From IMG/VR virus record IMGVR_UViG_2713896784_000030: a DNA stretch of 3,925 nucleotides. The stretch is one strand, 5' to 3'. How positions within the stretch are numbered: position 1 is the first letter of the stretch; every line of letters begins with the position of its first letter. The stretch comes from a virus. Lineage: Duplodnaviria > Heunggongvirae > Uroviricota > Caudoviricetes. Positions 497 to 1,652 of this stretch are shown here, in pieces. The translations under genes were made by a program, and so were the position numbers. The notes beneath the pieces are model-generated. The model had not been told where the DNA came from. It did no database searches and saw nothing but the letters and a program-made list of their open reading frames with translations.

Positions 497-526
497 ATAT
501 TAGGCTTAGCCTAATGCAATTGTCAA
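497..526 (-). promoter_or_regulatory. Sigma70-type promoter for the ydaS/ydaT operon (pR-like)
   Basis: On the minus strand there is a perfect -35 TTGACA (complement of plus 521-526), then an 18-nt spacer and TAATAT (complement of plus 497-502). Both elements are overlapped by the operator palindromes at 499-515 and 526-540. Inferred from consensus only. Confidence 0.45.
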
Positions 527-565
527 TAGGCTATGCCTAACGCTTCGAGAGTAGGTATTGCCTAA
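499..565. promoter_or_regulatory. Operator cluster: three TTAGGC-N3-GCCTAA-type palindromes between the divergent ydaS-like and racR-like genes
   Basis: Site A, 499-515: ATTAGGCT-T-AGCCTAAT, a perfect 8+1+8 inverted repeat. Site B, 526-540: aTAGGC-TAT-GCCTAa. Site C, 551-565: TAGGT-ATT-GCCTAa, one mismatch. The palindromes are seen directly; which protein binds them (presumably the adjacent repressor) is inference. Confidence 0.55.
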
Positions 566-593: not shown

Positions 594-1070
594 ATGCTTA
601 GTGGTAAAGACTTAGGCCGAGCGATAGAGCAGGCCATTAACAAAAAAATTGCATCAGGAGCCGTCAAATCAAAGGCGGAAATCGCACGTCATTTCAAAGT
701 CCAACCACCATCAATCCATGACTGGATTAAGAAAGGTTCGATAAGTAAAGACAAACTTCCAGAACTATGGCGTTTCTTTTCTGATGTGGTTGGTCCAGAG
801 CATTGGGGGCTTAACGAATACCCCATACCAACCCCATCCACTTCAGATACAAAAAGTGAACTTTTAGACATAAACAGCCTTTATCAAGCCGCCTCTGATG
901 AAAAAAGAGCAATTGTGGCTTTCCTCTTATCTGGAAATGCTACGGAGCCTAGTTGGGTTGATCATGACGTTCGTGCCTACATTGCCGCAATGGAAATGAA
1001 GGTAGCTAACTATCTGAAAAATCAAGAATCAAAACGGAAAAGCCAGAACATCACCAAGACAGGAACTTAA
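594..1070 (+). CDS. racR: Prophage repressor, RacR-like (158 aa), occupying the cI position
   Basis: ATG at 594 with AGGAG at 578-582. N-terminal HTH-like segment (...AVKSKAEIARHFKVQPPSIHDWIKKG...). The gene lies between two outward-facing promoter/operator modules, as lambda cI lies between pL and pR. Length and sequence agree with my recollection of Rac RacR; not verified by search. Confidence 0.8.
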   Translation: MLSGKDLGRAIEQAINKKIASGAVKSKAEIARHFKVQPPSIHDWIKKGSISKDKLPELWRFFSDVVGPEHWGLNEYPIPTPSTSDTKSELLDINSLYQAASDEKRAIVAFLLSGNATEPSWVDHDVRAYIAAMEMKVANYLKNQESKRKSQNITKTGT

Positions 1071-1083
1071 ACTTATATGGTCC

Positions 1084-1107
1084 GACGGGAAATTCCTAGT
1101 TCCCGTT
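1084..1107 (+). terminator. Weak candidate hairpin downstream of the racR-like gene
   Basis: GACGGGA (1084-1090) pairs with TCCCGTt (1101-1107) across a 10-nt loop, 14 nt after the racR stop. It is followed by TAGTTAACT rather than a clean T-run, so intrinsic terminator function is doubtful. Confidence 0.2.
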
Positions 1108-1164
1108 AGTTAACTCCTACTACCTCTCCCACAAACCATCACCTATTAGGTCGCACCCAAATCA

Positions 1165-1205
1165 TTAGGCGTAGCCTATTGACAAGCAATTAGGCATTTC
1201 CTATA
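1165..1205. promoter_or_regulatory. Second operator cluster (OL-like) with the same palindrome family
   Basis: Site D, 1165-1179: TTAGGC-GTA-GCCTAt, perfect core. Site E, 1190-1204: TTAGGC-ATT-tCCTAt, one mismatch. A weaker half-site-like element sits at 1146-1160. Same motif as at 499-565. Confidence 0.5.
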
Positions 1206-1207
1206 GT
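1179..1207 (+). promoter_or_regulatory. Sigma70-type promoter facing rightward toward ydaF-like, xis and int (pL-like)
   Basis: TTGACA (1179-1184), 17-nt spacer, TATAGT (1202-1207), both near consensus. The context cctaTTGACAa...TTAGGC... parallels the minus-strand promoter at 497-526, suggesting a duplicated promoter-operator module on each side of the repressor gene. Confidence 0.5.
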
Positions 1208-1307
1208 TTTCCCATACCAACCCATCCCGTCCCACACAATACAGGGCAATACCTAGAGTTACCCGGCAGTGGTCAGGGATTAAGTAGCCAGCCCGAGGCG
1301 TAAGAAC

Positions 1308-1538
1308 ATGACGGCAGGGTTCAACTTTAACTATGCAGCAGGTTTTTGTTCCGCTACCCCGGCGTTAAGGGGATATGAGGTCAGCATGGATACTCTTGAT
1401 CTTGGCAACAACGAATCTCTGGTGTGCGGCGTGTTTCCCAACCAGGACGGCACGTTCACCGCGATGACGTATACCAAAAGCAAAACGTTTAAAACCGAAT
1501 CTGGCGCGCGTCGCTGGTTAGCAAGAAACTCTGACTAA
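1308..1538 (+). CDS. ydaF: Small prophage protein, YdaF/YdfA-like (DUF1391-type), 76 aa
   Basis: ATG at 1308 with GAGG about 9 nt upstream. The C-terminal segment ...MDTLDLGNNESLVCGVFPNQDGTFTAMTYTKSKTFKTESGARRWLARNSD matches my memory of the small Rac/Qin proteins YdaF/YdfA. In K-12 this region is annotated as two short genes (ydaG and ydaF); here it is one continuous ORF. Position next to racR agrees with Rac synteny. Not verified by search. Confidence 0.6.
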   Translation: MTAGFNFNYAAGFCSATPALRGYEVSMDTLDLGNNESLVCGVFPNQDGTFTAMTYTKSKTFKTESGARRWLARNSD

Positions 1539-1652
1539 TGAAATCTGGTAATTAAGGAATCCTCCACGGGGGGAGAGTGGTGCACACGCGCCGGACACAA
1601 GCAAGCATCCGGCATGCTCTTTAACAATCTGGATATCCATAACAGTAAAAAT

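Follow-up and report, generated by a model that had tools for sequence, protein, structure and literature searches.

How is the early-left arm of a Rac-type prophage kept silent? Rac is among the most studied cryptic prophages, and its repressor, RacR, is essential in K-12, where RacR depletion leads to toxicity and excision. The question arises at positions 1166-1207 of a 3,925-nt stretch of viral DNA (Caudoviricetes; IMG/VR record IMGVR_UViG_2713896784_000030; this whole stretch is referred to below as the window), where a promoter and two palindromes lie between racR and a ydaF-like gene. The position, orientation, operator consensus and promoter layout of this module support, at the level of sequence, its reading as a repressor-controlled early-left promoter. 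We consider it highly probable that 1166-1207 is the early-left promoter-operator region, that is, the pL/OL analogue, of the immunity region of a Rac-type prophage.

The prophage locus

Many complete E. coli O157:H7 chromosomes match positions 1-2340 of the window at 100% identity, and the annotation of the matching O157 copy identifies a lambdoid prophage adjoining potC. In order, the locus comprises ydaT-like and ydaS-like genes on the minus strand, racR, the ydaF-like gene, a hypothetical minus-strand gene at 1653-2168, an exonuclease pseudogene, xis and int. The left arm of the prophage has decayed, with ydaF, a truncated 3'-5' exonuclease pseudogene, xis and int remaining. The two genes on either side of the module are as follows.

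594-1070, plus strand: racR, an open reading frame annotated as "DNA-binding transcriptional repressor RacR" in the identical O157 genomes
1386-1538, plus strand: ydaF-like DUF1391 gene, the first of the operon (Pfam PF07151, E = 1.9e-30, and annotation)

The RacR of the window is ~92% identical to K-12 RacR; a Pfam scan gave no match for this protein and otherwise agreed with the gene calls. A run of 50 Ns at 2355-2404 stands for ~233 nt of the exonuclease pseudogene that are present in complete O157 genomes, so that the window is ~183 nt shorter than the real locus.

A promoter embedded in two operators

The module consists of the following elements, to which a solitary half-site upstream is added.

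1145-1151, plus strand: solitary half-site ATTAGGT, matching the RacR monomer site ATTAGGC at 6 of 7 bases
1166-1178: operator on the -35 side (OL2 in lambda numbering), TAGGC-GTA-GCCTA, no mismatches, abutting the -35 hexamer
1179-1184, plus strand: -35 hexamer TTGACA (promoter scan)
1191-1203: operator on the -10 side (OL1 in lambda numbering), TAGGC-ATT-tCCTA, one mismatch, overlapping the -10 hexamer
1202-1207, plus strand: -10 hexamer TATAGT, TAATAT or similar in other lineages (promoter scan and alignment)

In the preliminary description, a near-consensus promoter, with TTGACA and TATAGT separated by 17 nt (1185-1201), was read as embedded in two palindromes, and every coordinate of that reading is right. 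The first palindrome, TTAGGCGTAGCCTAT, occupies 1165-1179 and has a perfectly palindromic core at 1166-1178, whose last base directly precedes the -35 hexamer; the second, TTAGGCATTTCCTAT, occupies 1190-1204, with the T for G at 1199 as the sole mismatch in its core at 1191-1203, and the last two bases of this core are the first two of the -10 hexamer. The operator centres are 25 bp apart. The module is on the plus strand, its first operator core beginning 96 bp and its -35 hexamer 109 bp past the racR stop codon.

A promoter scan finds two sigma-70-like sites in the whole window, at 1179-1207 (11/12 matches to the consensus) and at 526-497 on the minus strand (10/12), and 0.064 matches of 11/12 are expected per random window of the same composition. 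With up to 2 mismatches, TAGGCNNNGCCTA matches the window 6 times, always within 501-600 or 1166-1203; shuffled windows yield a mean of 0.92 matches, and none of 200 reaches 6 (p < 0.005). The promoter-like hexamers and the palindromes are thus confirmed as sequence features, and a chance origin is rejected.

In E. coli lineages, the mismatch in the -10-side operator is a point against the pL/OL reading. Another is the operator number: the palindromes within 2 mismatches at 1166-1203 number two, so no third tandem operator of the kind found in the OL1-OL3 array of lambda is present there; three operators are typical of lambda and do not define the class. A third operator at 1142-1151 was considered and rejected, this being a single half-site (1145-1151) that forms no palindrome. 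This half-site is kept in E. coli lineages and is absent from other lineages.

A sister module upstream of racR

The second sigma-70-like site belongs to the promoter on the other side of the repressor gene.

497-539, minus strand: ydaS promoter (pR analogue), TTGACA 526-521, 18-nt spacer, TAATAT 502-497

This promoter is flanked by operators at 527-539 and 501-513 and shares with 1166-1207 the layout of an operator, the -35 hexamer and a further operator that overlaps the -10 hexamer. The resemblance originally noticed between the downstream module and the minus-strand module at 497-530 withstands closer comparison: cctaTTGACAagcaatTAGGC, at 1175-1195, has as its counterpart cctaTTGACAattgcatTAGGC, the reverse complement of 510-530, with the same order of parts and a spacer longer by one base. 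Equally sound is the statement that racR is bracketed by two outward-facing, similarly built promoters, 526-497 on the minus strand and 1179-1207 on the plus strand. The ydaS promoter is built in the same way as 1166-1207, so one repressor would hold both arms.

The operator words on the two sides of racR are the same, in that those at 1166-1178 and 1191-1203 match the word of the sites at 501-564. The GCCTAA/TTAGGC repeats of the K-12 racR-ydaS region were noted in 2017, together with RacR binding by EMSA and ChIP-qPCR (PMC5700373). DNase I footprints of RacR subsequently yielded the consensus (T/A)TAGGC-n3-GCCTA(T/A), with ATTAGGC as the monomer site, on a 271-bp fragment that comprised the intergenic region only (PMC9638921). 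Both palindromes at 1166-1203 fit this footprinted consensus, one of them with 1 mismatch, and the K-12 racR-ydaS operators share with them the consensus (PMC9638921) as well as the succession of operator, -35, operator and -10. The published footprints, EMSA and ChIP-qPCR all pertain to the racR-ydaS intergenic region (PMC9638921, PMC5700373): the sites there have been footprinted, whereas the downstream pair lies outside the DNA fragments used. For 1166-1207, no footprint, mapped 5' end or genome-wide RacR binding data (SELEX, ChIP) were found in the literature searched, and the searchable RacR literature does not mention the module, ydaG, ydaF or a site downstream of racR. For Rac itself, we found no description of this module in the searchable literature, while modules of this kind are already known. 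Recent modelling of RacR control rests on the racR-ydaS intergenic operators only. The classical work on sbcA, by Kaiser and Murray and by Clark and co-workers, may have assigned the recE-activating control region to this place.

The racR-ydaS region itself varies among lineages. In E. coli, it contains four palindromes (at 501, 527, 552 and 588), the one at 588 lying over the racR ATG, and in the relatives outside E. coli it contains three. The ydaS-type promoter is associated with the racR-proximal pair in the latter and with the racR-distal pair (501, 527) in E. coli.

Conservation of the module across RacR lineages

The Rac prophage of K-12 contains a matching module, located between racR and ydaG. 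Comparison with the O157 copy shows differences in the 3-nt spacers, in the flanks and in the already mismatched base of the -10-side operator, and identity in the matching half-site bases and both hexamers. Beyond these, RacR homologues that are 58-92% identical, or that match over the N-terminal 77 residues only, at ~78%, occur in Escherichia ruysiae, Mixta, Proteus, Achromobacter and a metagenome bin, and in all of them the palindromes of the pair are exactly 25 bp apart. The lineages in which only the N-terminal ~77 residues of RacR are retained (73-81% identity) keep TAGGC-N3-GCCTA operators. In the pairs of these relatives, TTGACA follows the first palindrome and, in most, a TAATAT-like -10 lies over the second, with unrelated flanking sequences. 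The pair is located 91-176 bp after the repressor gene, or 1.6-2.3 kb where extra genes intervene; in the working Klebsiella phage KpF5, it follows a repressor-DUF450 operon, and Pseudomonas phage VW-6S has a version of the pair with TTTACA. At three loci (Klebsiella sp., Nitrosomonas and Aeromonas bins), no downstream pair was found within the DNA examined.

When viral contigs were scanned with a sequence pattern, at least 120 loci with the module were obtained. The search pattern fixed TTGAC (bases 1-5 of the -35 hexamer) and part of the half-sites and left free the sixth -35 base, the -10 hexamer and the 17-nt spacing. Among the matches listed (at least 120), 112 contigs encode a RacR homologue (43-100% identity), and these contain 182 module copies, of which 109 are downstream of the repressor gene on the same strand, at a distance of 91-2331 bp, and 73, of the pR type, are upstream on the opposite strand; none of the 182 occupies any other position relative to the repressor. 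When the module segments among the matches listed are clustered at 80% identity, 27 clusters result, across which conservation is confined to the half-sites, the -35, the -10 and a few As ahead of each operator. The half-sites are invariant across these 27 lineages and the 3-nt operator spacer is variable, the sixth -35 base is A in at least 80% of them, and the 25-bp operator spacing holds in every lineage with the pair. Because the search was seeded with the module, this recurrence arises partly by construction, and many of the contigs listed are E. coli prophages almost identical to one another; what carries weight is therefore the association with racR, which is independent of the search seed, together with the divergent lineages. 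An operator followed by TTGACA, 6 nt and another operator is a motif by which the borders of RacR-type immunity regions can be recognized in many Proteobacteria.

These patterns bear on two alternatives to the pL/OL reading. One is that the resemblance to a promoter-operator region is fortuitous or that the module is an inert duplicate of the ydaS promoter region, carried by a prophage in decay. The degradation of the prophage, with its pseudogene and reduced left arm, would fit such a residue, and a single 11/12 promoter match is expected by chance in ~6% of windows. Against this stand the clustering of the motif (p < 0.005), the occurrence of the module in working phages, KpF5 and vB_EcoS-683R6 among them, and its conservation across genera with flanks that are not conserved, and we hold this alternative to be extremely unlikely. 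The other is that the palindromes are genuine RacR sites that serve chiefly as an auxiliary operator, either a loop anchor or a roadblock to read-through, with the hexamers transcribing little. This is favoured by the short distance of ~630-660 bp to the upstream operators and by the octameric state of RacR (PMC11014345), comparable to that of lambda CI when it loops OL to OR, and Rho-limited read-through from racR towards kilR has been reported (PMC4150792). Against it, the sixth -35 base, the -10 and the 17-nt spacing are kept in the 27 otherwise unrelated lineages among the matches listed, and further evidence comes from phages with other repressors.

Replacement of the module in heteroimmune phages

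The region downstream of the -10 hexamer is a predicted leader.

1214-1385, plus strand: predicted transcribed leader, with the start predicted at A1214, 7 nt past the -10

The K-12 counterpart of this start is near 1,419,617-1,419,621 on the minus strand. In blastn comparison of 1140-1390 with phage genomes, where start positions were taken from the ten longest matches, ten E. coli phages match only from query positions 74-92 on (1213-1231 of the window), at 85-94% identity, with A1214 at the upstream edge of the range. vB_EcoS-683R6, an eleventh phage, encodes RacR itself, and its match extends from the first base of the query. Four of the phages, Tritos, Evi, 666R9 and 606R7, encode unrelated repressors, share the leader from ~+1 and have their own promoter and their own repeated words directly upstream of it. 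In Evi and 606R7, leader-adjacent words of at least 9 nt recur in the cI-cro intergenic region of the same phage; in 666R9, a shorter word, GTACAT, does so (by eye only), and in Tritos a search for a word common to the leader-adjacent promoter and the cI-cro region found none. Directly ahead of the leader that it shares with the window, Evi has the word GTTTAGT, which is the published PaaR2 word of CP-933P (PMC8630535). The K-12 prophage Qin shows the same arrangement between dicA and ydfA, with operators of the DicA type.

Operator specificity thus follows the repressor, other immunities placing other operators at the same point, as in these four phages. The presence of phage-specific promoters upstream of a shared leader puts the junction between immunity-specific and shared DNA at the -10/+1 boundary, which supports a start near A1214 and is expected of the left edge of an exchangeable immunity region. 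That heteroimmune phages place a promoter at exactly this point, before the shared leader, also argues against a mainly auxiliary operator, as does the activity of the homologous promoters dicBp and PL933P (PMC10448788, PMC8630535). Looping itself is compatible with promoter function, as in lambda, and we regard a chiefly auxiliary role of the sites as improbable.

Derepression of the arm and the proposed mechanism

Published expression data on the arm downstream of racR are in line with the pL/OL reading. When racR is silenced in K-12 by C.Csp231I, RNA-seq shows that ydaF, ydaG, ydaE and racC rise ~40-fold, and kilR, ydaC and ralA rise more than 70-fold (PMC6765115); low RacR leads to excision of Rac (PMC11014345). 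In Qin, dicBp, which lies upstream of the DUF1391 gene ydfA and was named a pL analogue by its authors, rises 22-fold upon deletion of dicA (PMC10448788), and reporter assays on PL933P of CP-933P have shown its repression by PaaR2 and YdaS (PMC8630535).

Under the pL/OL reading, a strong sigma-70 promoter would point away from racR, and RacR dimers would fill the two sites at 1166-1178 and 1191-1203, probably cooperatively, and exclude RNA polymerase, keeping the arm from ydaF to xis and int silent. Upon depletion of RacR, transcription would begin at or near A1214 and proceed through ydaF, antisense to the 171-codon gene at 1653-2168, across the exonuclease remnant and into xis and int, ~1.35 kb away. 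A second, downstream operator pair would explain the joint silencing and derepression of kilR, recET, ralR and xis/int. The identification of the module as a pL/OL analogue, which the preliminary description had proposed, is upheld by the occurrence of this architecture wherever the RacR-type DNA-binding domain is found, by its replacement in heteroimmune phages and by the derepression of the K-12 arm. The lambda parallel drawn there concerns the control of both early arms by one repressor; in operator number the module departs from lambda, with two strong operators instead of three. Of the recombination side ascribed to the rightward arm, this decayed prophage retains ydaF, the truncated exonuclease pseudogene, xis and int.

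A different division of labour can be envisaged, in which the promoter is real and its chief control is exerted by a factor other than RacR, for example the Cro-like YdaS, or by Rho acting on a C-rich leader, RacR having no direct effect. PL933P of CP-933P responds to YdaS as well as to PaaR2 (PMC8630535); Rho silences Rac genes (PMC4150792); and the leader, C-rich, G-poor and unstructured, resembles a typical rut site. The palindromes, however, are the words that RacR protects upstream of its gene (PMC9638921), across hosts they accompany the DNA-binding domain of RacR, and the arm is derepressed by RacR depletion (PMC6765115). Control by YdaS or Rho would supplement that by RacR and not supplant it, and we give little credence to a scheme that dispenses with RacR, even less than to a chiefly auxiliary operator.

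The silencing of kilR has been ascribed to Rho-dependent termination of racR read-through transcripts (PMC4150792). Given this Rho-limited read-through, the racR promoter could be the source of some of the downstream expression, a point against the pL/OL reading; Rho termination of the read-through and an independent repressible promoter can coexist. Between racR and the module, the window contains a hairpin.

1084-1107, plus strand: hairpin GACGGGAA-N8-TTCCCGTT, directly after the racR stop codon, folding at -10.9 kcal/mol

This 8-bp hairpin is conserved, with a compensatory change from G:C to A:U in the K-12 type; it lacks a good T-run, and the terminator scan made no call here. In many lineages, a canonical intrinsic terminator is located directly upstream of the operator pair, and the hairpin may be the counterpart of such terminators. 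It is possibly a weak terminator, analogous to t-imm, that parts racR transcripts from the promoter.

The leader RNA and boxA

The first ~40 nt of the leader are rich in C and poor in G (18 C and 2 G in 1200-1239), and the leader folds more weakly than its shuffled versions (z = +1.7). Its composition and apparent lack of structure suggest a rut-like segment. An Rfam scan of the whole window at E <= 1 returned nothing, and RNAalifold, applied to 12 diverse leaders, predicted 6 trivial pairs, without covariation. A leader hairpin with apparent compensatory changes in four lineages outside E. coli was set aside, as it does not extend to the E. coli leader. A leader of the HK022 put type was likewise rejected: a match by eye of ~17/19 to stem II of putR is present, but the hairpin cannot form, and blastn against HK022 finds no significant similarity in the leader, nor is there a conserved structure or covariation.

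A core of the form AAGTAGC-N(1-2)-GCCCGAGGCG (GTAGCCAGCCCGAGGCG in E. coli) recurs in the leaders, including those of lineages outside E. coli. Starting ydaF at an in-frame ATG at 1308 would lengthen it by 26 codons (1308-1385, plus strand); in K-12, the equivalent ATG starts an 18-codon ORF in another frame, owing to indels. Given this change of frame, 1308-1385 is probably noncoding or encodes a short leader peptide.

Further downstream in the predicted transcript, a hairpin precedes a boxA.

1590-1627, plus strand: hairpin with arms GCCGGA (1590-1595) and TCCGGC (1608-1613) separated by N12, then boxA

The boxA, TGCTCTTTAACAA at 1615-1627, is an exact rrn-type element ~+402 from the predicted start. 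Counted over the related loci examined, words resembling boxA number 18 on the pL strand and 0 on the other strand and mostly lie 0-1200 nt downstream of the module; leaders of the Achromobacter type have a boxA-like word at +55 to +120. In the window, no boxB-like hairpin follows the boxA and no N-like ORF is found between the promoter and xis. The boxA may have a function in the pL transcript.

Possible looping and escape from Rho

RacR is octameric by size-exclusion chromatography (PMC11014345), so that an OL-OR loop of ~0.65 kb is possible. We tentatively consider a scheme, one that we hold to be possible but on balance doubtful, in which octameric RacR bridges the OL pair and the upstream operators, and the pL transcript escapes Rho without an N protein, through boxA and/or the leader. 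Such a loop would enclose racR and give the OL pair a part in racR autoregulation, and the published assignment of the octamer to the four intergenic repeats would need revision; the downstream pair suggests that the octamer may be the looping species, as with lambda CI. Escape from Rho would mean that the long untranslated path to xis and int is covered by the boxA at ~+402 and/or by the leader shared across immunities.

Comparison with lambda, Qin and CP-933P

Conceptually, the module offers nothing new, being the lambda design executed with different parts. As in OL/pL of lambda, an outward sigma-70 promoter lies downstream of the repressor unit, the operator word of OR is repeated over this promoter with adjacent operators ~24-25 bp apart, one repressor governs both early arms, and the arm heads towards xis and int. 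The repressors are unrelated in sequence, RacR being 15% identical to CI (PMC5700373), and the parts differ: the operator is the 13-bp TAGGC-N3-GCCTA for RacR, compared with 17 bp in lambda; the window has two strong operators and lambda three; and lambda has an N gene and boxB, whereas the window has only the rrn-type boxA. The t-imm that precedes OL in lambda is paralleled in many RacR-type lineages by the intrinsic terminator before the operator pair.

The dicBp promoter of Qin is a positional homologue, situated between the repressor gene and a DUF1391 gene (ydfA, compared with ydaF in the window) and overlapped by operators; the first protein encoded beyond dicBp, YdfA, is a DUF1391 family member like the ydaF-like protein of the window. 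It differs in its repressor, DicA, and in operator words of the GTTAGC/GCTAA type, and in K-12 Qin most of the leader is deleted. PL933P of CP-933P comes from the same family of prophages with a ydaS/ydaT right arm and, like the module in the window, is located 3' of the repressor operon, with operator words and hexamers that also serve the right promoter. Unlike the window, CP-933P has operator words of the GTTTAGTAA type, with three OL sites described, and a toxin-antitoxin pair between the repressor gene and PL933P.

Candidate accessory genes

The 171-codon gene at 1653-2168, on the minus strand, is convergent with the pL transcript and encodes a protein with a predicted coiled coil and a CxxC...CxxC motif. 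It sits where the Rac prophage of K-12 has sieB. Pfam offers no credible match for the predicted protein, its one hit being below threshold (E = 0.0033), and PADLOC gives none; the gene could be a superinfection-exclusion or defence gene under antisense transcription from pL. In KpF5 (4649-5803) and at two Achromobacter loci, the repressor gene is separated from the operator pair by one or more extra genes, for example one for a DUF450 protein, in the position that corresponds to the rexAB slot of lambda, and these are likely to be accessory or defence genes expressed from the prophage.
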